Shown piece after piece: positions 613-56,369 of a stretch of DNA of 62,097 nt. Both the position numbers and the translations under genes were made by a program. The stretch covers positions 1-62,097 of IMG/VR virus record IMGVR_UViG_3300018041_000006. One strand, 5' to 3'. A model generated the notes under the pieces. That model did no database searches. It worked only from the letters and a program-made list of their open reading frames with translations, and was not told the DNA's origin. The DNA comes from a virus (taxonomy: Duplodnaviria > Caudoviricetes). How positions within the stretch are numbered: position 1 is the first letter of the stretch; each line of letters begins with the position of its first letter.

Positions 613-3288
613 TTACCAGACATAGTCCATATTTTGAATCTTTTTAATTCTATCTTTAATAGACTTTGCATAGTTCTTAACTTCTCTTTCGTAATAACTA
701 CCTTCATATCCAGCATTCTTTTCTTGTTCTGCGTTATTTGTATAGTCTACGTATCTTCTAAAGTCATCTAATAGATTTGACATTGCGTTCGAAGCATCTC
801 TTAAAGAAACACTTCTTCCTTTAGGATCTGTTCCAATAATCGGTTCACCGTATTTAGATGTTTCTTTATTAGCAATTCCATTTTTAATTTGCTCAGCAAC
901 AACATCAATGGCCTTTAAAACTTCAGCGTCTATTGGCATTTGTGCTGCTCGATTTGCAAGAATTGTGTGGTATCTGTCCTTATTTTCTTTTCTAAAATCT
1001 TTATCAGACTTGAAGGCAATTGCTCCTTTTTTAGATTGCTCTCTTTCAGTTCTTTTTGCAGATGATGAGTATCTTGCATCTAGTACGTCAAGATCTAATA
1101 CATACGCTCTGTCGGCTAATTCTGCAACTTTTGTTAGACTTGATATTCCTGAACCCCATTCATCCTGTGTACTTGATTTTGAGAATCCTATACTATCATC
1201 TCTTTTTGAAGTTGTTACTGTTGATTCACCTCGCATCCATCCCGTAGATAACCATTGATTCTTGCCATCTGTCATTGCAAGTAGTGTGTTTCCAGGAATA
1301 CTTTTTACACCATATGAATATGACTTTGCATATGGGTTTTCTTTTTCATTTGTTGTAAAGTAAAAATATACAGCTCTATTTCTTTTTTCTTTTTTAGCAG
1401 AAATTGGATCCATTTCAATAATATCAATATCTTCAATTTTATCTAGTTGAAGTTTTGACATTGAATAAAATGACTTTGCTAGATTCTTTGGCATTGATTT
1501 TGCACCTGCTAGAATAGACTGTAGCTTTGAAGACTTAAATGCTTCATTAACTGTGTTATTACTTAAAGATTGTACATATGATTTAAAAGACTCATATATG
1601 AATTTGTCCTCTTTTTTGTTTCTCTTTGATTCAAATTCTCCATTTTGAGCCATTGATAATAATGCAGTTGCTATTTTTTCAGCCTTAGCACCCTTATGTC
1701 CATAAGTTGCAACTGTTTCTCTAGCATCATCAGGTAACATGTCAGCTAATTCCCATGGATCATATTCTCCTAAAAGATCTAGTAAAATATTTTTAGCTTC
1801 TTTTTCTTCTTTACCTTCACTTACTGCTCTATCCTCTTTAATTGTTACTGGATATTTTTTACCGTCAAATTCAAATTCTTTATCTCCAGCATCTTTTGCT
1901 TTTTTAGCAGCCGCAACAAATGCTCTACCTTCTTTAATTGTTACTGGATATTTTTTACCATCAAATTCAAATTCTTTGTCTCCATCGTCTTTTGCTTTTT
2001 TAGCAGCCGCAACAAATGCTCTACCCTCTGTAGTTACTGATTCAAACTGTAAAGAATCAAGCTTAATATTCATTGAAACCATGTCCATTGGTCCTTTACC
2101 ATCTTCATAGTCTACTGTAGCCATTGATCCAGTCGGTGAAAATTCTATAATCTTAAATCTACCAGGGAATCTGATATTCTCACCATAAACGGTTTCACCT
2201 TTCTCAACAGCCTTGATAGCTTTCTTAATTTTAGGATGAATACCTTCGTTAATTGCCGATTCTTCAATATACTCAGCTAATCCATCATCACACCATCCAT
2301 AGTCACAATCACTTAGTACCTTTTCAAGGTCTTTTCTTTTACCTTGCATTGTAATTACCGGGTGACCTCCACCTGGACCATCCATCATTTTATCAGTGAT
2401 CTTAACTCTATTTTTCTTTAAGAATTTTAAGAAGTCTTTATCATCTGGATCTACTGCATCCATTTCTACACGAGCCTCACAAATCTTAGATTCGTCATAA
2501 CCATCATAGTCATCATAATAGTCTTCATCACCTCCAGTATACCATGACTGGTTTGGATCCGATGCTGCTTCTTTGGTAAAATCATGTCTTTTCCAGTTAT
2601 ATTTAGCAGTTGTTACGAGCGCTGGAAAAAGAGGTTTTTTACCTTTATCTCTTGTTTCTAGACTTCCAAATGCAATAGCAATACCGAAATCTCTTAAAGA
2701 TTTAGAAACCATTTTGATTTTTTTCGTAAGACTTTTATCTTCTAAGTCTTCTTCAGAATATCCATTCATTCTAGCAAGCAATTCATAATAGTCCATTCCT
2801 CCGAATTCTCCATAGCCTTCGTATTTACCTTCAAACCAAGAATTTCCTCTATTATCATACATCCAAACGTCAATTGTATTCTCTTTGTCAGAACCGATTT
2901 GCTCTTCAGTATCTTGTGTCATCCATGAGAATTGACCCTCTGCGATCATAAAAGATTCAGTAATTTCTTCTTCAGATTCTTCTTCATTAATATTTAATAC
3001 CGACAGCGCTCTAGACCCTATTTTTGATAGTGATACTCCATCTTCAGAAACATTAAAATATCTAGAATTCCTAGAGATCCATTTTGGGGCACTTTTTGAA
3101 AATTCAGAAACTAATTTTTCAAAATCTTCGCTTGTAATTGTTGTTGTTCCAACAGTTGACAATATTTTATTTCTTACCTTTGCTGCAAATCCAATTGTAA
3201 TTGCTGGGTGATTTTCAGTATATTGTCTTTTTACAACGATTTTCTTTGACTCGCTTAGATTGCGAGAAAATTCATTAAAATCAATCAT
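613..3288 (-). CDS. 891-aa multi-module putative internal head (poly)protein
   Basis: Leader MIDFNEF; repeated ES..[VI]xE linkers; tandem 32-aa repeat; GQFSW...YEGYGEFGG domain. Confidence 0.6.
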   Translation of the reverse strand: MIDFNEFSRNLSESKKIVVKRQYTENHPAITIGFAAKVRNKILSTVGTTTITSEDFEKLVSEFSKSAPKWISRNSRYFNVSEDGVSLSKIGSRALSVLNINEEESEEEITESFMIAEGQFSWMTQDTEEQIGSDKENTIDVWMYDNRGNSWFEGKYEGYGEFGGMDYYELLARMNGYSEEDLEDKSLTKKIKMVSKSLRDFGIAIAFGSLETRDKGKKPLFPALVTTAKYNWKRHDFTKEAASDPNQSWYTGGDEDYYDDYDGYDESKICEARVEMDAVDPDDKDFLKFLKKNRVKITDKMMDGPGGGHPVITMQGKRKDLEKVLSDCDYGWCDDGLAEYIEESAINEGIHPKIKKAIKAVEKGETVYGENIRFPGRFKIIEFSPTGSMATVDYEDGKGPMDMVSMNIKLDSLQFESVTTEGRAFVAAAKKAKDDGDKEFEFDGKKYPVTIKEGRAFVAAAKKAKDAGDKEFEFDGKKYPVTIKEDRAVSEGKEEKEAKNILLDLLGEYDPWELADMLPDDARETVATYGHKGAKAEKIATALLSMAQNGEFESKRNKKEDKFIYESFKSYVQSLSNNTVNEAFKSSKLQSILAGAKSMPKNLAKSFYSMSKLQLDKIEDIDIIEMDPISAKKEKRNRAVYFYFTTNEKENPYAKSYSYGVKSIPGNTLLAMTDGKNQWLSTGWMRGESTVTTSKRDDSIGFSKSSTQDEWGSGISSLTKVAELADRAYVLDLDVLDARYSSSAKRTEREQSKKGAIAFKSDKDFRKENKDRYHTILANRAAQMPIDAEVLKAIDVVAEQIKNGIANKETSKYGEPIIGTDPKGRSVSLRDASNAMSNLLDDFRRYVDYTNNAEQEKNAGYEGSYYEREVKNYAKSIKDRIKKIQNMDYVW
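1835..2026. repeat. Two near-identical 96-bp tandem copies encoding EGRAFVAAAKKAKDxGDKEFEFDGKKYPVTIK
   Basis: tctttaattgttactggata begins at 1835 and again at 1931. Confidence 0.95.
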
Positions 3289-3309: not shown

Positions 3310-5151
3310 TTATATATTCTTTATAAATTTTTCAAATGTTAAAAACTCCGATTCATTAGTAGACACGCTGTCTTCTAATTTTGTTTTTAGCTCATTGTAC
3401 ATTCCATGAATTTGCTTAGGAGTTAATTTTTTAAATAGCTTTTCATCGTTGTCAAGCATTGCATTTCTTACTTGAGTTGCTGAAATATTTTTACCAGTTC
3501 TTGGAATCTCGAATAGACCAAAATCATCTCTGACTCCGAGATCTTCTCTATATTCTGGTTTATCTACTTGGTATGAATAAGTTTTAAGCCTATCAGTTCC
3601 AGTACCCCAAAGTACAGGTTCATAGCCGTCTGCCCTCATTGCATTAAACATGTGGTCTATACCAGCAGTTGGAAGAACATAAACTTTTTCAATAGGATAC
3701 TTTGACTTTAATTGATTAAGCATTGCAATTTGAGTTTCCTCGTCATAAGGTCTCTTAAATGCATCCTCTGGTTTTTTAGTCTTTGATTTAATTAAAAATA
3801 TAACTACTGGATAACCATTTTGTTTGTTAATAGTTTCTATTACCTTAGCATGTCCCAATGTAAATGGCTGAAAGCGACCAACAAACATATTTACTGGCTT
3901 TTTACCTTGTTTAGGGTAACTAACAGTCAGTGCTTCAGTAATAGGACTTACTTGATGTTTTAGGTTTTCGTGATTTAAAAATGTTTTAAAGCTCATGAGA
4001 TTTGATTCATTGTTTTGAAGCATTACAACTGACTCTATTTTATCAACGATCTCGTTAATTTGAGACATTAAGTCATTGTTAATAATTTCAGTTTCTTTAA
4101 GTCTTCTTTTTCTAAAAGAACCTAGCGCAATTTTATATAATTCTTCTAGCACCTGGTTAGCTACTAACTCTATTGTTTTTTCATTAGTGATAAACTTAGT
4201 GTTTAGTGAAAAACTTGGTGAGTCAGAAAATTCAGCAGACTCAAATTTAACTCCAATATATTTGGTTGCGTTTTTATCAACATATGCATTAAATAATTGA
4301 GAGATTAGTTCAATATATCTTTTGTCAGAATCATTTTCGTTTAATTCTAGGTTTTCAATATCATATGTTGTAAAATATTCAACTAAATCTAGTAGTGCTA
4401 TCTGGTATATGTCAGATGGTTTTCTGTTTTCTTTTATAAGATCTTCTCCTTGACATATCTTAAAACTCTTTACACTTTTACCTTCGAAAAAATTAATAAT
4501 AATTGAATCAATCTCACCATCTAAATCTTCATTAAGAGCAGTTGAATTTAATCCTCTATTAAATATAGAATACATTTTTCTAGAAAAGCTTAGAGACTCA
4601 AACTGTGCATCGAAATCAGTATCGCTTAAATTTAGTAATTTTGTAATCTCATCCTTTTGATAATCAGAAAGTTTTCCTTGGTGTAAAATTTGAGGTCTTT
4701 GTACTTCTAGGATGTCAGCCCACTTTTCTAAGATTTTAGGATCTCTGATTACTTTCTTTATTAAAGTAGGGTCATTAGGACTCATTACTTGTATATGTGA
4801 AAGCATCAAATTATTTTTAGGTATTCTGTCGTACTTTATATTGACTGTTTTTGAATCGGTCATATAATCAAATCCAAATCTCCAGTCTAAAGGCATTTGC
4901 TCTTTAATATGATCGGGCTGTGATTCAAAATAGGTCACTGCATTTTCATAGTACTTTACAATTGTTCTATCAACCTTATCCATTGGTGATTTATTTCCAC
5001 TCTTATGATAATTATATCCTTTATCAGTTTTTTGAACATGGAAAGAAGACGCTTGTATCTTTTCTGCAACAACGCAGGTTAGATTTAGCATTTTTTGAAA
5101 ATCATTAATATTGCTTTCGCTATAATATGTTCTTAAATTTTGTAGTGCCAT
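3310..5151 (-). CDS. Fusion of a degenerate ligase-like N-terminal domain and a C-terminal HxGH cytidylyltransferase/NMNAT-superfamily domain
   Basis: FVGRFQPFTLGH (HIGH-type motif), GTDR, ISATQVR; N-terminal VAEKIQASS resembles ligase motif I (EKxDG) without the DG. Confidence 0.75.
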   Translation of the reverse strand: MALQNLRTYYSESNINDFQKMLNLTCVVAEKIQASSFHVQKTDKGYNYHKSGNKSPMDKVDRTIVKYYENAVTYFESQPDHIKEQMPLDWRFGFDYMTDSKTVNIKYDRIPKNNLMLSHIQVMSPNDPTLIKKVIRDPKILEKWADILEVQRPQILHQGKLSDYQKDEITKLLNLSDTDFDAQFESLSFSRKMYSIFNRGLNSTALNEDLDGEIDSIIINFFEGKSVKSFKICQGEDLIKENRKPSDIYQIALLDLVEYFTTYDIENLELNENDSDKRYIELISQLFNAYVDKNATKYIGVKFESAEFSDSPSFSLNTKFITNEKTIELVANQVLEELYKIALGSFRKRRLKETEIINNDLMSQINEIVDKIESVVMLQNNESNLMSFKTFLNHENLKHQVSPITEALTVSYPKQGKKPVNMFVGRFQPFTLGHAKVIETINKQNGYPVVIFLIKSKTKKPEDAFKRPYDEETQIAMLNQLKSKYPIEKVYVLPTAGIDHMFNAMRADGYEPVLWGTGTDRLKTYSYQVDKPEYREDLGVRDDFGLFEIPRTGKNISATQVRNAMLDNDEKLFKKLTPKQIHGMYNELKTKLEDSVSTNESEFLTFEKFIKNI

Positions 5152-5475: not shown

Positions 5476-6756
5476 TTACCTACCATATTTTATTATTCCT
5501 AAAAGTTGATTAAATGGAGCAAAAGTTCCAGTTAGCTTATAGGTTTTTCCTTTGTATATAAATACTAGTCCTTCGGAAGGAACTACTGATTCGATTCCTC
5601 CAATTCTTTCTAGTCTTGTGAGTTCAGTTTCTACTCTTTTAATTTGATCTATGTCTCCTCCTTTTTTAATCTTTGCAGCTTCTTCTCTAAAATGTTTATG
5701 TAATCTTTGCATTTCTTCACTTGGATTTGCTGCTACAAAATTAGAGGCATTCTTTAAAATAATAGATCCTAATTCTAAGAAAAGATCTTCAAAAGGTCTA
5801 ATGTTTTCTTTGTATTTCTTTTTAACATCTTCTTTATCAAACTTTTTAATTGCAGCAAGTTGTGTCTTATCTACTAATTTACCAATTGATCGTAGATCTA
5901 AAGTTTGCTTATCGCCATATGCCCATCTTAAAAGAAGACCTTCTTTAACATCTTGTGTTAATTCTCCAAAATATTTTTCGATTTGTTCTCTCCACCAAGC
6001 CTCATGGTATCTAGATACTTCATCAGAATCTTCAAGATTGTATTGTTTTCTTAAAGCTTCAATTTTTTTAAAAAACTTATCTTTATTCTCTTCAAAGTTA
6101 ATATCTTTTGCTAGCTTTATAATTTGTGGAGGAATAATCGTAAATGTTTTCCCAATATTTGCCTGTACTTTAGACAAAGCATCGGCAACTGCCTTTGCTG
6201 AACCCTTAACATCACCAATAATATTACCTTCACCGTCAGTCTCTTTAATGCCGTGAAATTGAATTACATCTCGGTCATACCTAATTACATTTGGATTTTT
6301 CGAGTAAATCAGCTCCATATTCATAAAGTTTTTACCATTGTTAAAAACTTCTTGATCTTTTGTTGAAAGCTTTATTAGTTGATATGCTAAATCCTCTGCT
6401 GCAAATTGAAAAGTATCTTGTACTCCTTTACTTGAGTGTCCTTCAAACTTTTCCTTAAACTCCGTAAGATTCATTGGAAATTTTAAACCTCCTTTATTTC
6501 TAGCAAATTTTACTTCACCATCTTGAATTGTAGCAAACAGATTTTGACCATCTGTCTTTTCAGTAGCTTCTTCTTCAAAATTTAATTCACCTTGCAGACC
6601 AACTTCAACTAATTTTTTAAAATCTCCAAATGTTAATGACTTATCATCAAATGGATGGCTCATATGGCCTGCAGCTCCGCCTTCTAATACAAGATCATCG
6701 CTGTTAAACCCTGATGCTTTCTCATTTAAAAATTCTTGGTATGTAAATAATTTCAT
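5476..6756 (-). CDS. Covalent nucleotidyltransferase (RNA-ligase-like) protein of the GGAAGHMxHPFD phage family
   Basis: TEKTDGQN (motif I), NMELIY (III), SEGLVF (IV), YKLTG (V); leader MKLFTYQEFLNE. Confidence 0.6.
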   Translation of the reverse strand: MKLFTYQEFLNEKASGFNSDDLVLEGGAAGHMSHPFDDKSLTFGDFKKLVEVGLQGELNFEEEATEKTDGQNLFATIQDGEVKFARNKGGLKFPMNLTEFKEKFEGHSSKGVQDTFQFAAEDLAYQLIKLSTKDQEVFNNGKNFMNMELIYSKNPNVIRYDRDVIQFHGIKETDGEGNIIGDVKGSAKAVADALSKVQANIGKTFTIIPPQIIKLAKDINFEENKDKFFKKIEALRKQYNLEDSDEVSRYHEAWWREQIEKYFGELTQDVKEGLLLRWAYGDKQTLDLRSIGKLVDKTQLAAIKKFDKEDVKKKYKENIRPFEDLFLELGSIILKNASNFVAANPSEEMQRLHKHFREEAAKIKKGGDIDQIKRVETELTRLERIGGIESVVPSEGLVFIYKGKTYKLTGTFAPFNQLLGIIKYGR

Positions 6757-6770
6757 CTTATTACTTATTA

Positions 6771-8609
6771 TTATCCTAGCGATGAGGTCAACATTCCTAC
6801 TGCTGCTCCGTAATCACCATCTGTTTTTGATAGTATACCATCAACCACTTCTTGGGCTTTACCTTCGTCAAAGTCTTCGCCAAATGCTTTTTGAAGAACT
6901 GTAAATGCATATTCTTTAAATTCTTCGTCAGACTTAATTTCTCCTTCATTTACAGTTTCAGTTGATTCGAATGCAAACTCTGAATTATTACCTTTTGAAA
7001 ACTCATCATGTTGATCTGCGGGTACAATTGCTAGCATACCAACGTCCTTTTTTCTAACTTTTAAATCTGTAATAGCTTTTTGTTTAGCTTTCCATAAAGA
7101 TTCTGCTTCAAATTCATGCTTTTTACCATTATGGAATGCATAAAATCTAGTTTCATTAGTTACAGATTCTCCTAATGCAAATAAGAAATCTCTATCTAAT
7201 TCTTCACCATATCTATCGTCAAAGATTTCTTCTAAATCTTTTACAGTAACTCTACCTTTATAATCATTTTCAATATCGTCAATTACATCCATATGATCGC
7301 TTTGTAGAATGTCTTCGCCATACGCTGAATCCCATGCGTCAATAATGTCGCTTGCTTTATATTTCTTGGCTTCATTTGTTACAGATTCTCCAGCAAATTC
7401 TTTCGCATTTTCTTTATCTTCTTTATCCACATTTTTTACTGGATATTCTTCATCTCCAACTTTAAAAGTTTTATCTCCTTTAGCGATTGCCTTTGCCCTA
7501 GCCGCACCAAATTCATTACCTTCTTTTACTCTAGATTCTAGAATTTGTAAACTATCAAATAACGTATTAAAAGTGTTAATTAATTCTTGAGCAATTTTAG
7601 TATCTCCAATTTGGTCTAAGTACAATGCTGTACCTTCTACAATTGCAAGTCCACTCCAACTAGCAGCATTAGAAATTCTACTTGATTCATTATACTCTAA
7701 TTCATCGGTAAGTTTTCTAGAAGATATGTTAACTTCAATTCCTCCTAAACTTTCAACTGGAACAACAATAGATCCTAAAGATCCTTTAATTCTTCTTGAA
7801 CAAGCTGCTGCTTCTCTATGAAAATTTGCGTCAACCATCGCTGCGTTAAAAATAACTTTTATTGCTCCTCGAAGAGCATCTCCACCATCATATTTTTTAA
7901 GATCTAAAATTGCAGGGTATCTTTTATTGAAAATATGATTATATTGAGTTGCTACTTTTTTTGCATCTCTTTTACCCGTTACAATTACTGCCTCATTTAC
8001 ACTGTATGATTCAAAAGCAGGTCTTAGATTATCATCTTCATAGGTATCTGCCATATACCATTTATTATCTCTTTCGTCGTATAGATATATGAATTCTGCC
8101 CAAGACTGTTTAGCATCTCCTATAAAAGTTCTAATTGCTCCAGCATTACCCGTTAATGGATCTTCACCGTCATTATAGTAGTTAATTGAGTTTGGGTCTG
8201 AATCAAGTCCAGAACCTGCTCCATTTTTTAAAACAGTGTAGATGTTTTTCTTTTTTGATCCACTATATCCTTTCTTTATTAAGGGTAACATGTTTTCTGG
8301 GTATCCATCGTAGTGCATATATACTGCTTCGATGTCTCCTTTTCTATCTATTTTTCCAAAAAATGATCTTGTTCCTTCTTCTACTAGTGAAAGTGATTCA
8401 TTTAAATCAGTGCCTTCTAGTCTTGAAAAGAATTCTGTTCTTTTTTCTTCTTCTAGTTCAGAAACTTTAGTTACTCCATATTCTGATAATAGATCTCTAA
8501 AACTCCTAGCCGATTCTTCTCTAACCTGATTGTTTTTAGATTCTAGCTCGGCAGCTGCCTTTTCGTTTTTAATTTTAGTGTATTCGTCAAACGATCGTAA
8601 TGTATTCAT
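6771..8609 (-). CDS. 612-aa multi-module putative internal head (poly)protein
   Basis: Leader MNTLRSFDEY; six ES..VxE linkers; YMHYDGYP domain; one copy of the EGxxF..A..K.F...YPV module. Confidence 0.6.
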   Translation of the reverse strand: MNTLRSFDEYTKIKNEKAAAELESKNNQVREESARSFRDLLSEYGVTKVSELEEEKRTEFFSRLEGTDLNESLSLVEEGTRSFFGKIDRKGDIEAVYMHYDGYPENMLPLIKKGYSGSKKKNIYTVLKNGAGSGLDSDPNSINYYNDGEDPLTGNAGAIRTFIGDAKQSWAEFIYLYDERDNKWYMADTYEDDNLRPAFESYSVNEAVIVTGKRDAKKVATQYNHIFNKRYPAILDLKKYDGGDALRGAIKVIFNAAMVDANFHREAAACSRRIKGSLGSIVVPVESLGGIEVNISSRKLTDELEYNESSRISNAASWSGLAIVEGTALYLDQIGDTKIAQELINTFNTLFDSLQILESRVKEGNEFGAARAKAIAKGDKTFKVGDEEYPVKNVDKEDKENAKEFAGESVTNEAKKYKASDIIDAWDSAYGEDILQSDHMDVIDDIENDYKGRVTVKDLEEIFDDRYGEELDRDFLFALGESVTNETRFYAFHNGKKHEFEAESLWKAKQKAITDLKVRKKDVGMLAIVPADQHDEFSKGNNSEFAFESTETVNEGEIKSDEEFKEYAFTVLQKAFGEDFDEGKAQEVVDGILSKTDGDYGAAVGMLTSSLG

Positions 8610-8646: not shown

Positions 8647-10155
8647 TTATATATCTCCATCAAATTTAACCTTTTTGATGTCATATTTAAACTTTTGTTC
8701 TTTATAAATTTTTTGTCTAGCCTTTGAGTGCCTCATTAAATAATTATCCCAGTCCGGTGAAGTTATATCATCGACAAAATCTATAATCGTAACACTGTCT
8801 TTTGATTCATGCTGTCTAAGTCCTCTACCAATAGACTGCCTAATAATTACTTCTGATTTAAACGATTCCGTAAAGAAGATATTGTGAATCTTTTTAATTG
8901 AAATACCGGTAGAGAAGGTACCATAGCTGGCAACGATAACAACTTCATCTCCTGCTTCCATTTTCTTTTTATATTCTTCGCGTATGTCTTTATCGGTTCC
9001 ACCATCAACATAATAAATCGTTTTATCGCTCTCCTGTCTAAGCTTTTCGTATATTTTTTGGCCATGCTCAATGCGGTGGAAAAGTACAAGGGAATTGCCA
9101 CGTACTCTGGAAATAATGTTGCAAATAAAGTTAAGGCGGCCTGGTGAATTAATAATATAATTTTGTTCAAATTTAAATACGTCTTTATTTTCATATTTGT
9201 TATGTGCCATTTCGCGAAATGCCTCTTTTGCACCGTCAGGAGCATAATCCATTTCAATAACTTTTACGTTACATTTTGCAATATGTCCTTCATTCTGAAG
9301 AAAATTTGCGCTTACTTCAGTAATAAGAGGTCCGGTATATGCCATTAACGTTAGCCTATCGAGAGTTCCTGATTTTGGAATGGTTCCAGAAAGACCATAT
9401 CTATATTCTGCATTTTTACATTTTGATAAAATTGTTTTAATAGATTGAGATTTTGCTTTATGTGTCTCATCGATAATTACAGCGTCAAATTGGTCAAAAT
9501 ATTCATTTTTCTTTTTAATTAGTGATTGATATGTCCCAATTACTACATTCCGACCTGCTCTAATTGTTTGACCGCTATAAATTTGCTGTATTTTTATATT
9601 TACTTGATTTTTGTAATTATAATCCATAAAGTCTTCGCTTGCTTGTATTACAAGTGAAACGTTTGGGACAATAAATAAAATCTTTTCGGCTTTTTGTTTT
9701 TCTAGGATATATGCAACTGTTAAAAAAGAAATTAACGTCTTACCTGCAGAGGTCGCAAGCTCTGAAAGACATTTTCTAAATTTTAAAATATTAAATGCTG
9801 CTTCTATTTGGTAATCGCGAGGTGTAATCTCTGAATCTTTAAAAAAGTTTAGAACCCATTCTTCAAATCCATCCGGGGTAATTTCTTTATCAAATAGTCT
9901 AGAAATTCCATTAATTTTAAGTTCATATCCATAATCTTTACATATGTCCATAACTTCTTTCCATAATCCGGCTGGAATCCACTTATCATCTTTTACATAA
10001 GAAATATAACCATCCCACACTCCTTTTTTGACAAGTGGATTAAATCTCCACGAGTCAATTCTTTTTGTTAGTGAAATATTCAACTGTTCTAGTTCTAGTG
10101 AAGTTGCCTCATCTATCCTTAGTAGTTGATTGTTTTCGGTTAAACTGAGCTCCAT
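8647..10155 (-). CDS. uvsW: UvsW-like SF2 DNA helicase
   Basis: PRDYQ, ATSAGKT, IIDETH, GLSGT, QSIGRGLR; WDG in the N-terminal domain; adjacent to uvsY. Confidence 0.92.
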   Translation of the reverse strand: MELSLTENNQLLRIDEATSLELEQLNISLTKRIDSWRFNPLVKKGVWDGYISYVKDDKWIPAGLWKEVMDICKDYGYELKINGISRLFDKEITPDGFEEWVLNFFKDSEITPRDYQIEAAFNILKFRKCLSELATSAGKTLISFLTVAYILEKQKAEKILFIVPNVSLVIQASEDFMDYNYKNQVNIKIQQIYSGQTIRAGRNVVIGTYQSLIKKKNEYFDQFDAVIIDETHKAKSQSIKTILSKCKNAEYRYGLSGTIPKSGTLDRLTLMAYTGPLITEVSANFLQNEGHIAKCNVKVIEMDYAPDGAKEAFREMAHNKYENKDVFKFEQNYIINSPGRLNFICNIISRVRGNSLVLFHRIEHGQKIYEKLRQESDKTIYYVDGGTDKDIREEYKKKMEAGDEVVIVASYGTFSTGISIKKIHNIFFTESFKSEVIIRQSIGRGLRQHESKDSVTIIDFVDDITSPDWDNYLMRHSKARQKIYKEQKFKYDIKKVKFDGDI

Positions 10156-13739: not shown

Positions 13740-14120
13740 TTACATGTTTTTTCCAAGAGCAGCGCCTAACGCAGCACCTACTAATCTTGAAGTTAAAAGG
13801 TCATAGAATACTCCTTTTTCAATACCTAAAACTTTTGCTACTAATTTACCAACTGATTTTCCAAGAGCAAATCCAGCAAGCCCTCCAAAAATAGATCCAA
13901 GTAGACCCTCATTAGTTAACTCATCATTAAATCTATTAATATCTACAATACCATCTTCATTGGTATATTCTAGCATAAATTCATCTAATGCTGCATCTAC
14001 TTTCTCCTCTAACTCTGGGCTCCATTCTTCTTGTAAACCTTCTGTTAAAATTCTTAGATCGTCTTCAGTAACTGACTGCTCTGCTAAGTATTCGTTAAAT
14101 GTTCTAATGTCCTTTCTCAT
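13740..14120 (-). CDS. Small protein with capsid-targeting-like leader and glycine-zipper hydrophobic C-terminus
   Basis: MRKDIRTFNEYLAE; LTNE|GLLGSIFGGLAGFALG...VGAALGAALG. Confidence 0.65.
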   Translation of the reverse strand: MRKDIRTFNEYLAEQSVTEDDLRILTEGLQEEWSPELEEKVDAALDEFMLEYTNEDGIVDINRFNDELTNEGLLGSIFGGLAGFALGKSVGKLVAKVLGIEKGVFYDLLTSRLVGAALGAALGKNM

Positions 14121-26454: not shown

Positions 26455-26518
26455 TTAATACTAGTCTATCTTTTTATAGAATATAATCCTATACTCTATA
26501 TATCAATTAAAGCTAGTA

Positions 26519-40114: not shown

Positions 40115-40164
40115 CTAATATGATATTATACTCTATTGTATATATCATAAGTAGTTGAGTGAAC

Positions 40165-41478: not shown

Positions 41479-41488
41479 TTATATATCT
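41479..41488 (-). promoter_or_regulatory. Late-type promoter motif (G/A)ATATATA, representative copy upstream of rpsA
   Basis: Same motif upstream of gene starts at 8647, 14124, 26496, 40138, 48859, 54287, 58065, 60763 and 61065. Confidence 0.65.
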
Positions 41489-48840: not shown

Positions 48841-48882
48841 ATATTGGGATATTTTTATTTATATATCCCAGTTAATATATTA

Positions 48883-54257: not shown

Positions 54258-54298
54258 TTTATTTAGTTTTGTTTTTTTCTTACGTATTATATATCTAC

Positions 54299-55140: not shown

Positions 55141-55428
55141 TTACTTTTCTAAAAGGTCTTTTCGATCTAGTTGTTTATAAACCTCTTTACGTGTTTTTTC
55201 CATCTTTTCAGCATATTCTGGATCTTCGTTCCTGTTAAATACAACCTGTTGTGTTAATGAACCACTGATTGCTTTTAAATCTTTTTTACGGGTTTTAATT
55301 AACCATGCTGCCAAATCTTTAGGTGAAAGGTCTCTAAATCTTCCTTCAGCATCTGGAAAATCTGAATCTTGCCATTTTGGAGAATTTTCAGACACGAATT
55401 GTTCAAAGTATCCAATAAATTTCATCAT
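55141..55428 (-). CDS. Small protein with capsid-targeting-like leader
   Basis: MMKFIGYFEQFVSE; ATGA overlap. Confidence 0.7.
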   Translation of the reverse strand: MMKFIGYFEQFVSENSPKWQDSDFPDAEGRFRDLSPKDLAAWLIKTRKKDLKAISGSLTQQVVFNRNEDPEYAEKMEKTRKEVYKQLDRKDLLEK

Positions 55429-56369
55429 GACGGTCTGTTTTTATCTTTAGCATAAGGCTGAGAATTATCTTGTATCCATCTCTTGCCTAGCGGATTTTGA
55501 ACGGGTGTTCTTAAATGTCTATTGATTTGTTTTTCAATTTCATTAAAAAGATCTTGATTGTCATATGATGAGTTATCAACAATTAGCAACCTATCTGCAC
55601 CAAAAAGTTTTTGAAATTTACCTAAGTTATATTGAACATCATTCCACATTTTTTCAACAATGGCATCAGGTAGTTTGCGTGCTCTATTTCTATTTCTTTC
55701 AAGAGCAACTTCAAGCGATGTATTTACGAATATCATGTACGTATCGTATCCTAAGTCTTGATACAATTTTCTTTTAGACTCAATTTTTTCAAAATCTTTA
55801 CCAGTACCGTCAATAACTTGGCCTAATCTACCACTTATGTAATTAGATTGCATCTTTCTAGTAACCTCCTTAGCTTTATTCCTAACCTTCATGACCTCTG
55901 CCCATACTTCAGTATCTTTAGCGTATTGCGCTAGTTTACCAGCATCATATCCAGCATCTTTAAGTTTCTTTTCAAAAGCATTGTCGTTATTAACTAATTT
56001 TAAACCAGTTGCATAAGAAACTGAAGAGAGTGCTTTTTTAGGAAAATCAAATAATTCTGTAGCAACGTAAGATTTTCCAGAGCCAGGGCCTCCTGCCATA
56101 AAAAAAGCTTTAAGTATTCCTGGATCATTTACGCCTTCATTAATTTCAGACTCTGATATAGCTCCTTTCTGATTAAACATAGATCTATTTACAGTTATGA
56201 CCCCAGAATCATCTTGTAGTTTTATAACATATTCATCTACATCAACTACTGTGTATTCTTGACCATAGTATAGTACTTTAGTATCAAGCTTAATCGCTTT
56301 AAAATCGTCCTTGCTTATTTTTTCTCCGTATTTCTTTACAAAGTCTTCAAATAGCTTAATATATTTCAT
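55425..56369 (-). CDS. P-loop kinase (zeta-toxin/AAA_33/PNK-like) with leader and an SH3-like N-terminal module
   Basis: AGGPGSGKS, VIDGTG, MIFVNTSLEVALERNRNR; leader MKYIKLFEDF; linker ISESEINE|G. Confidence 0.8.
   Translation of the reverse strand: MKYIKLFEDFVKKYGEKISKDDFKAIKLDTKVLYYGQEYTVVDVDEYVIKLQDDSGVITVNRSMFNQKGAISESEINEGVNDPGILKAFFMAGGPGSGKSYVATELFDFPKKALSSVSYATGLKLVNNDNAFEKKLKDAGYDAGKLAQYAKDTEVWAEVMKVRNKAKEVTRKMQSNYISGRLGQVIDGTGKDFEKIESKRKLYQDLGYDTYMIFVNTSLEVALERNRNRARKLPDAIVEKMWNDVQYNLGKFQKLFGADRLLIVDNSSYDNQDLFNEIEKQINRHLRTPVQNPLGKRWIQDNSQPYAKDKNRPS

Follow-up and report, generated by a model that had tools for sequence, protein, structure and literature searches.

Here, we analysed an open reading frame (ORF) of 612 residues at positions 6771–8609 on the minus strand of the IMG/VR virus record IMGVR_UViG_3300018041_000006, a stretch of 62,097 bases that is called the window in its whole length. 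The sequence features described below make it probable, though far from certain, that this ORF encodes a capsid-targeted precursor that is cut at six linkers into seven proteins in the prohead. In the proposed mechanism, the phage, an uncultured T4-like giant of marine origin, would use the ORF to make a precursor ('polyprotein') of cargo for the interior of its head. A leader with an aromatic pair, perhaps together with the helical first module (M1), would take the whole chain into the prohead scaffolding core, and a prohead protease of the gp21 family would cut after the last Glu of each of the six linkers (consensus E-S-V-V/I-N/T-E, then A or G). These cuts would free up to seven small folded proteins of 62, 128, 157, 50, 73, 69 and 57 residues, which would remain beside the DNA in the head and probably accompany it into the host. 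We infer these steps, from targeting and cleavage to head retention, injection and the roles of the modules. The T4 capsid targeting sequence (CTS) and its processing by gp21 are textbook knowledge, but they are known for single small proteins.

Linkers and modules of the ORF

The six linkers all read E-S-x(0-3)-[V/T]-x-E, with A, G or T as the next residue, and were located with the regular expression (regex) ES-x(0-3)-[VIT]-x-E-[AGTSKN], which places their last Glu at residues 78, 206, 363, 413, 486 and 555. All six linker strings quoted in the initial annotation are present in the translation, and the module size of about 45–160 residues given there corresponds to the seven lengths measured here, which follow a 16-residue leader. 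The features of the ORF are given below together with the stretches of low predicted local distance difference test (pLDDT) score in an AlphaFold2 model. Counts of homologues refer to 120 listed proteins out of 1,112 found at E <= 0.001 among 8,000 candidates scored.

6771–8609, minus strand: whole ORF, candidate capsid-targeted polyprotein, 612 residues plus stop
8562–8609, minus strand: leader MNTLRSFDEYTKIKNE, residues 1–16, with an aromatic i/i+3 pair as in the T4 capsid targeting sequence
8376–8561, minus strand: M1, helical leader domain, residues 17–78; in 120/120 listed homologues; weak match to phrog_5053
8376–8399, minus strand: linker 1, ESLSLVEE then G, residues 71–78; pLDDT <50 at 68–78
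7992–8375, minus strand: M2, PHROG_1987 domain that stands alone in other phages, residues 79–206
7992–8012, minus strand: linker 2, ESYSVNE then A, residues 200–206; pLDDT <50 at 203–206
7521–7991, minus strand: M3, conserved helical and beta domain, residues 207–363; in 120/120 listed homologues
7521–7538, minus strand: linker 3, ESRVKE then G, residues 358–363; pLDDT <50 at 353–357, just before the linker
7371–7520, minus strand: M4, mini-domain of helix and hairpin, 50 residues (364–413); 0 to 3 copies in homologues
7371–7388, minus strand: linker 4, ESVTNE then A, residues 408–413; pLDDT <50 at 409–416
7152–7370, minus strand: M5, rare cassette, residues 414–486; in 2/120 listed homologues, the query included
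7152–7169, minus strand: linker 5, ESVTNE then T, residues 481–486; pLDDT <50 at 468–484
6945–7151, minus strand: M6, rare cassette, residues 487–555; in the query only among the 120 listed, with boundaries shared by P0121 and L037
6945–6968, minus strand: linker 6, ESTETVNE then G, residues 548–555; pLDDT <50 at 541–554
6774–6944, minus strand: M7, three-helix C-terminal module, residues 556–612

The occurrence of these motifs in the ORF is not random. The regex matched six times, whereas 20,000 shuffles of the ORF residues gave 0.13 matches on average (largest count 3; 0/20,000 reached 6), with the limit that it was composed after the motifs had been seen, so that the exact p-value is inflated. 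The linker density is 9.8 per 1000 residues in the ORF and 0.32 per 1000 in the 56 other proteins of the window, a background of 6 matches in 18,678 residues that leaves out the ORF and an 891-residue ORF at 613–3288. Among all 58 window proteins (20,181 residues), the 17 matches are divided into six in the ORF, five in the 891-residue ORF, where 0.17 were expected, and six elsewhere. This agrees with the earlier description of two polyproteins with the same linker grammar, which was also said to occur in other proteins and is indeed seen as AISESEINEGV in the protein at 55425–56369, DELTNEGLL at 13740–14120 and SPITEAL at 3310–5151. A diverged copy of M4 in the 891-residue ORF, claimed in another early note, was not confirmed, as BLASTP of the seven modules against the 58 window proteins gave only self-matches at E <= 0.01.

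A rule that had been set beforehand, the T4-type [VILT]-x-E-[AGST], gave ten matches in the ORF, nine of which lie inside the six linkers, three of these at the first Glu, before Ser. The sole match outside the linkers, E325, is situated in a confidently folded helix (block pLDDT 93). Judged by sequence fit alone, P3 is V in four linkers and T in two, P1 is Glu in all six, and P1' is A or G in five and T in one.

The predicted structure is modular. The AlphaFold2 model, calculated with the query and 49 homologues picked from the 120 listed, has a mean pLDDT of 75 and a predicted template modelling score (pTM) of 0.35. Eight stretches fall below a pLDDT of 50, namely residues 1–4, 434–437 and the six given above, and these six overlap or directly abut the six linkers. 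The block pLDDT is 80–94 for M2, M3 and M7, and only about 60–80 for M1 and M4–M6. According to this model, the ORF product is a beads-on-a-string chain whose domains have no fixed mutual arrangement.

M2 is the module that could be assigned to a family. It matches phrog_1987 at E = 1.6e-14 with module residues 1–116 on profile positions 2–122 of 128, a full-length match that places M2 in PHROG_1987. Since this match begins at profile position 2, a cut after E78 would give the usual N-terminus of the family. A tblastn search with ORF residues 79–195 found matches in 4 Streptococcus phage records, and a standalone gene of the M2 type is situated between the terminase and portal genes in Streptococcus prophages. 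In BFVD, only uncharacterized phage proteins were found for M2; its fold matches a 162-residue protein of a Campylobacter phage and resembles 150-residue proteins of T4-like phages. In Pfam, the whole ORF has no family at E <= 0.01, and the seven modules at E <= 1 gave only one weak DUF7108_C match below its cut-off. M3 has no match in Pfam, PHROG or the PDB, and for the modules other than M2, the Pfam, PHROG, ESM Atlas and PDB fold searches returned nothing usable for function. Neither the full-length model nor the M2+M3 model has a PDB match at E <= 0.001, and ESM Atlas returned only viral hypothetical clusters with scores <0.9.

Linker conservation and module exchange among homologues

A BLAST search with the seven modules showed that M2, like M1 and M3, is found in all 120 listed homologues. 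M7 is at or near the C-terminus in 119 of them (the exception being P0021), in three copies in some, and is the best conserved piece with 69–91% identity. Unrelated inserts of 60–170 residues are found between M2 and M3 or between M3/M4 and M7, and cassettes are gained, lost or duplicated exactly at the linkers. Splitting the listed homologues into segments gave 31 families in 53 distinct orders; this clustering is crude, because junctions missed by the regex merge families, and both numbers are rough figures only.

The linkers are conserved although the modules change. In an alignment of 50 sequences with 40–69% overall identity to the query, E71, E78, G79, T80, R81, P197, A198, F199, E200 and E555 are invariant, while N205, E206, A556 and E557 are at least 90% conserved. 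Junctions of foreign cassettes bear the same peptide, for example ESVVTE, ESVVNE or ESVTNE, each followed by A. A logo of 324 distinct junctions showed E at P6 (55%), S at P5 (54%), V at P4 (33%), V or I at P3 (60% and 22%), N or T at P2 (47% and 25%) and A or G at P1' (63% and 21%), with the drawback that the logo was anchored by the motif regex itself. When the M7 core was used as the anchor instead of the motif, Glu was in register in 148/148 distinct upstream contexts from 240 proteins. Of these contexts, 142 fit [VILT]xE[AGS] and 2 fit xxE[AGS], and the remaining 4 have VNE followed by K or T, or differ solely at the residue just before the M7 core.

Codon choice for Glu, Ser, Val, Asn, Thr and Ile in 106 linkers of 25 ORFs is the same as in the rest of these ORFs (in linkers, Ser is encoded by TCA in 50% and TCT in 29%; Val by GTT in 50% and GTA in 46%), which argues for selection on the peptide and not on the DNA. 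This bears on the idea that the linker is a recombination signal at the DNA level for cassette exchange, with the peptide being incidental. The 53 segment orders, the exchange of cassettes exactly at linkers, and the two ESVTNE copies at residues 408–413 and 481–486, a repeat that had been pointed out before and that shares 20/21 bases, would all suit such a signal. Since the codons of the linkers vary as they do elsewhere in the same ORFs and no DNA word is conserved, we consider this explanation very improbable.

The same module boundaries are also found behind N-terminal tags. P0156 (73 residues) consists of a tag ending in LNE that is directly followed by AEIK..., the start of M7, and contains M7 alone. 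In P0152, a tag and a small module are followed by ESVVNE and M7, and in P0121, leader-M1 is followed by EVNE, M6 and M7. At locus L037, M5-M6 stands behind the in-frame tag MANFEEFINGLNSQQVSE (MANFEEF...VSE), and M5 starts at AKKY, as it does after ESVTNE in the query. An internal linker can therefore take the place of a tag end, and the reverse, at one and the same residue. This interchange would be explained most simply by a shared cleavage site, and it also suggests that the ORF may have originated by in-frame fusion of tagged genes. Because the short homologues consist of leader-M1 and one or two copies of M7, these two ends may be what stays constant, with the cargo in the middle.

The frame at L037 (7644–8774, 376 residues) carries a complete tag with its own Met, in frame after a Lys run and before M5-M6; this is explained either by two genes that fused in frame recently or by an internal start. 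P0199 (249 residues) is an SPFH/Band 7 domain protein (PF01145) that has M7 at its C-terminus, where ...AVTE is followed by AEVK; hence, M7 also moves onto proteins of other kinds.

Such fusions raise the question of whether the linkers are merely decayed N-terminal tags left by once separate tagged genes, with no present function. The L037 tag, which has retained its Met although it lies within a longer frame, the arrays of separate tagged genes in the window at 53.7–60.8 kb, and linker 2 (AFESYSVNEA), which still resembles F-E-x-[FY]-x-V-N-E-A, are in line with such relics. Relics should decay, yet the Glu is invariant across homologues of 40–69% identity while synonymous codons vary freely. 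A fusion origin is itself compatible with a cleaved precursor, and only the claimed lack of function competes with it; we therefore rate this alternative as unlikely.

Targeting tags and the prohead protease

The aromatic pair of the ORF leader is formed by F7 and Y10, and conservation reaches at least 90% for L4, F7 and F10 across the 50 sequences. Homologue leaders keep L-x-S-F-E-D-F with no fixed site after it. In the ORF itself, the next Glu sites have I at P4 and not at P3 (IKNE), so that the leader is without a clean [VIL]-x-E site and a cut at E16 is doubtful. The first cut may thus be at E78, leaving a propeptide of 78 residues, of which M1 may be a part.

At least 11 other window proteins begin with full MKHIKLFEQFVNE-like tags (12 proteins are tagged by regex, the ORF included), and separate tagged genes form the arrays at 53.7–60.8 kb mentioned above. 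Their N-termini include MKLFTYQEFLNE in a 426-residue protein, MKHIKLFEKFVNE and similar sequences. In the T4 record, IPIII and IPII begin with MKTYQEFIAE followed by A, and IPI begins with MKTFKEFTSTTTPVSTITE followed by A (MKTFKEF...ITE); the spacing aromatic, x, x, aromatic, [VIL], x, E is identical in T4 and in the window. The available text of PMC9026906 gives L/I-X-E as the sequence after which gp21 cuts and states that head targeting needs no more than the first ten residues of IPIII. It assigns targeting to residues 4 and 7 of the CTS and processing to residues 8 and 10, and states that Asp at position 10 of the tag blocks processing.

The initial annotation had proposed to test the motif for enrichment in tagged compared with untagged proteins. 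Taken as a whole, this comparison was positive, with 13 matches in 2,993 residues of 12 tagged proteins against 4 in 15,738 residues of 46 untagged ones (Fisher p = 5e-8). However, 11 of the 13 matches lie in the two large ORFs, without which 2 matches in 1,540 residues remain (p = 0.09), both in one acidic low-complexity stretch. In addition, the tag regex missed the tag of the kinase at 55425–56369, which supplies one of the four 'untagged' matches. As the enrichment vanishes without the two large ORFs, the motif marks multi-module proteins and not tagged proteins in general.

Two tagged proteins of the window deserve a short description. The protein at 55425–56369 (minus strand, 314 residues) has an AAA_33/Zeta-toxin-like P-loop kinase domain from residue 90 and carries ISESEINE followed by G at residues 72–79, just before this domain; on sequence grounds, residues 1–79 could be a removable propeptide. 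The 426-residue protein at 5476–6756 (minus strand), starts with MKLFTYQEFLNE, which comes closer to the T4 IPIII tag than any other sequence in the window; the protein has no match in Pfam or PHROGs. It contains EKTDGQN, which we take to resemble the Lys-x-Asp-Gly motif of ligases and capping enzymes.

The protease and the capsid protein are both found in related phages. Five long related contigs (126–212 kb, 43–76% complete) each contain one Peptidase_S77 match above the Pfam cut-off, the family of the T4 gp21-type prohead protease, in frames of 633–831 residues. All five also have a Gp23 match above the cut-off at a distance of 2–3 kb from the protease match, and exactly one copy of M7. Judged by the gene order kept around the ORF together with the similarity of UvsW, these contigs are true relatives of the window phage.

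We also considered whether the protease frames of the relatives are tagged polyproteins themselves and rejected this, because the frame starts with the protease domain and runs into a long acidic tail. In L044–L048, L050 (1–1136) and L051 (1–1141), the Peptidase_S77 domain opens the frame and the Glu-rich acidic tail ends just before the gp23-like gene; this frame may be a protease-scaffold fusion. The gp23-like capsid protein (L051, 1246–2706; L050, 1240–2661) starts with MANLINESEIRGTWAPIIEEATGINESEK and has three x-x-E sites in its first 27 residues, which are candidate propeptide cuts by the same protease.

As for the polyprotein reading of the initial annotation, its modular architecture was supported by the beads-on-a-string prediction, the linker grammar fits a gp21-type protease, and the same boundaries recur behind N-terminal tags, while the contig itself contributes no protease gene. 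Several observations weigh against cleavage into seven proteins. No experimental precedent was found for the release of several folded domains from one chain. Neither a capsid gene nor a protease gene was found on the contig, a fragment of 20% completeness, and the protease acting on the ORF is one that we infer from the relatives. Among 50,697 phage records, no cultured relative was found, and the only matches were the four Streptococcus records with M2 only. Besides the leader without a clean site, both ESVTNE linkers have Thr and not L, I or V at P3, and the conserved E-S at P6-P5 belongs to no described gp21 rule and is of unexplained role. The two reservations about the regex, made above for the shuffles and the logo, count in the same direction.

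One alternative is that the ORF product acts as a single chain, a multi-domain protein of the head or the cytoplasm, in which the linker is an uncut inter-domain linker or helix cap, or from which only the leader is removed. In SPN3US, the best studied giant phage, every identified cut except self-cleavage removes an N-terminal propeptide, as far as the available part of PMC10052503 describes them. In nearly all homologues, M1 and M7 occupy the opposite ends, which would suit a chain of fixed polarity, and the known gp21 rule assigns no role to the E-S pair. On the other hand, a passive linker needs no invariant Glu with V or I two residues before and A or G after it, would not interchange with the end of a T4-like tag at the same module start, and does not account for the confinement of nine of the ten protease-rule matches to the linkers. 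We thus regard an uncut chain as rather improbable, while it is the alternative that deserves to be taken most seriously.

Genomic setting, known systems and meaning

The window is one linear contig with about 32% G+C, and every gene of its non-overlapping gene set is carried on the minus strand. If the 20% completeness estimated by CheckV holds, the whole genome would be about 300 kb. T4-like genes on the contig include the UvsW helicase and a baseplate wedge protein. Megablast of window bases 1–25,000 against the 50,697 phage records found no close relative, and the nearest UvsW in these records, at 56% identity, belongs to an uncultured phage record of 462 kb.

Gene order is kept in six related loci (L026, L006, L008, L028, L031 and L001) and comprises a 301-residue gene, a 357-residue gene, a 142-residue gene, UvsW, the homologue of the ORF, the 426-residue gene, a 613-residue nucleotidyltransferase gene and the 891-residue ORF. 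UvsW is 72–92% identical across these loci. In contrast, the ORF is 42–63% identical to its syntenic counterparts with altered module content, in loci where the adjacent helicase is 83–92% identical, and at L031, M7 alone aligned at E <= 1e-8. This makes the ORF a fast-changing slot in a conserved neighbourhood. Such rapid change compared with its neighbours would fit a role in conflict with the host.

An upstream motif was found in front of the ORF:

8648–8655, minus strand: GATATATA motif, possible promoter element, 39 nt upstream of the ORF start codon

The window contains 11 copies of GATATATA (8648–8655, 26497–26504, 40139–40146, 41480–41487, 48860–48867, 54288–54295, 60764–60771 and four more), all on the coding (minus) strand, where 6.7 are expected and 4 of 100 shuffles reach 11. 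Seven copies are wholly intergenic and situated 6–196 nt upstream of starts, while intergenic DNA makes up 2.6% of the window. The genes behind them include two structural-looking genes of 2,301 and 592 residues and two tagged genes. This weakly suggests that the ORF may be regulated jointly with structural genes, and says nothing on timing. The T4 late-promoter word TATAAATA is not enriched in the window (11 copies against 15.3 expected).

Among known systems, the T4 internal proteins IPI, IPII, IPIII and Alt are similar to the tagged proteins of the window in their short N-terminal tag with aromatics three residues apart and [L/I/V]-x-E followed by A. Further likenesses are a protease of the same Pfam family in the relatives and a diverse, fast-evolving cargo, as described for T4 in the available texts of PMC9026906 and PMC3012670. 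The difference is that T4 uses a separate gene, one tag and one cut for each cargo protein, whereas the ORF holds seven modules in one frame with six internal sites, an extra E-S, and a leader without a clean site. The T4 core and scaffold proteins gp22, gp67 and gp68 show that the same protease, gp21, cuts one chain several times (available texts of PMC9026906 and PMC5694885). However, what gp21 makes from them is mostly lost from the head and consists of short peptides, while the pieces of the ORF are predicted folded domains of 50–157 residues, and the ORF adjoins uvsW and is not in the head gene block.

The ejection and inner-body proteins of phiKZ, 201phi2-1 and SPN3US offer a parallel from giant phages, in which many head proteins are cut after Glu at a three-residue motif. 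In the accessible parts of the sources, a gp21 homologue cuts at S/A-x-E and long propeptides have several sites; the cuts reported there take off N-terminal propeptides, and no arrangement of unrelated cargo modules that can be swapped along one chain is described there.

Polyvalent proteins are the nearest concept to the ORF. As the available text of Iyer et al. 2017 (PMC5512222) presents them, they unite many domains in one polypeptide, and it is predicted that they accompany the DNA in packaging and delivery, possibly with proteolytic release, but they contain conflict domains that are known and often a metallopeptidase with which they process themselves. The ORF is without any Pfam domain, its cleavage would be left to the head protease acting in trans, and the defining set of at least two conflict-related domains, often with an MPTase peptidase, is absent from it.

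In the literature searched on the capsid targeting sequence together with polyproteins, no tagged multi-cargo polyprotein was described. The moraphage paper PMC12619734 may concern the present lineage, but the contig could not be linked to it, and the term 'polyprotein' was not found in its available text. The mechanism proposed for the ORF is that of the T4 CTS and gp21; what is new is the presence of several unrelated folded cargo modules per frame, with conserved sites between them, that are exchanged as cassettes.

A more far-reaching view, which we put forward tentatively and hold to be somewhat doubtful, is that the ORF, present in a single copy beside uvsW, serves as a hypervariable 'cargo slot'. 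The tag with M1 and M7 would bracket changing modules, each flanked by a head-protease site, as swappable units that are released as injected proteins. If true, this slot would deliver host-takeover or anti-defence factors as a plug-in platform, comparable to polymorphic effector loci.

If the ORF is indeed a cleaved precursor of head cargo, giant marine phages would load and inject a much larger and faster reshuffled set of proteins than genome annotation suggests, and the unit of function would be the module and not the ORF. In this large family, the linker would also provide a simple sequence rule for spotting virion-delivered proteins in metagenomes.

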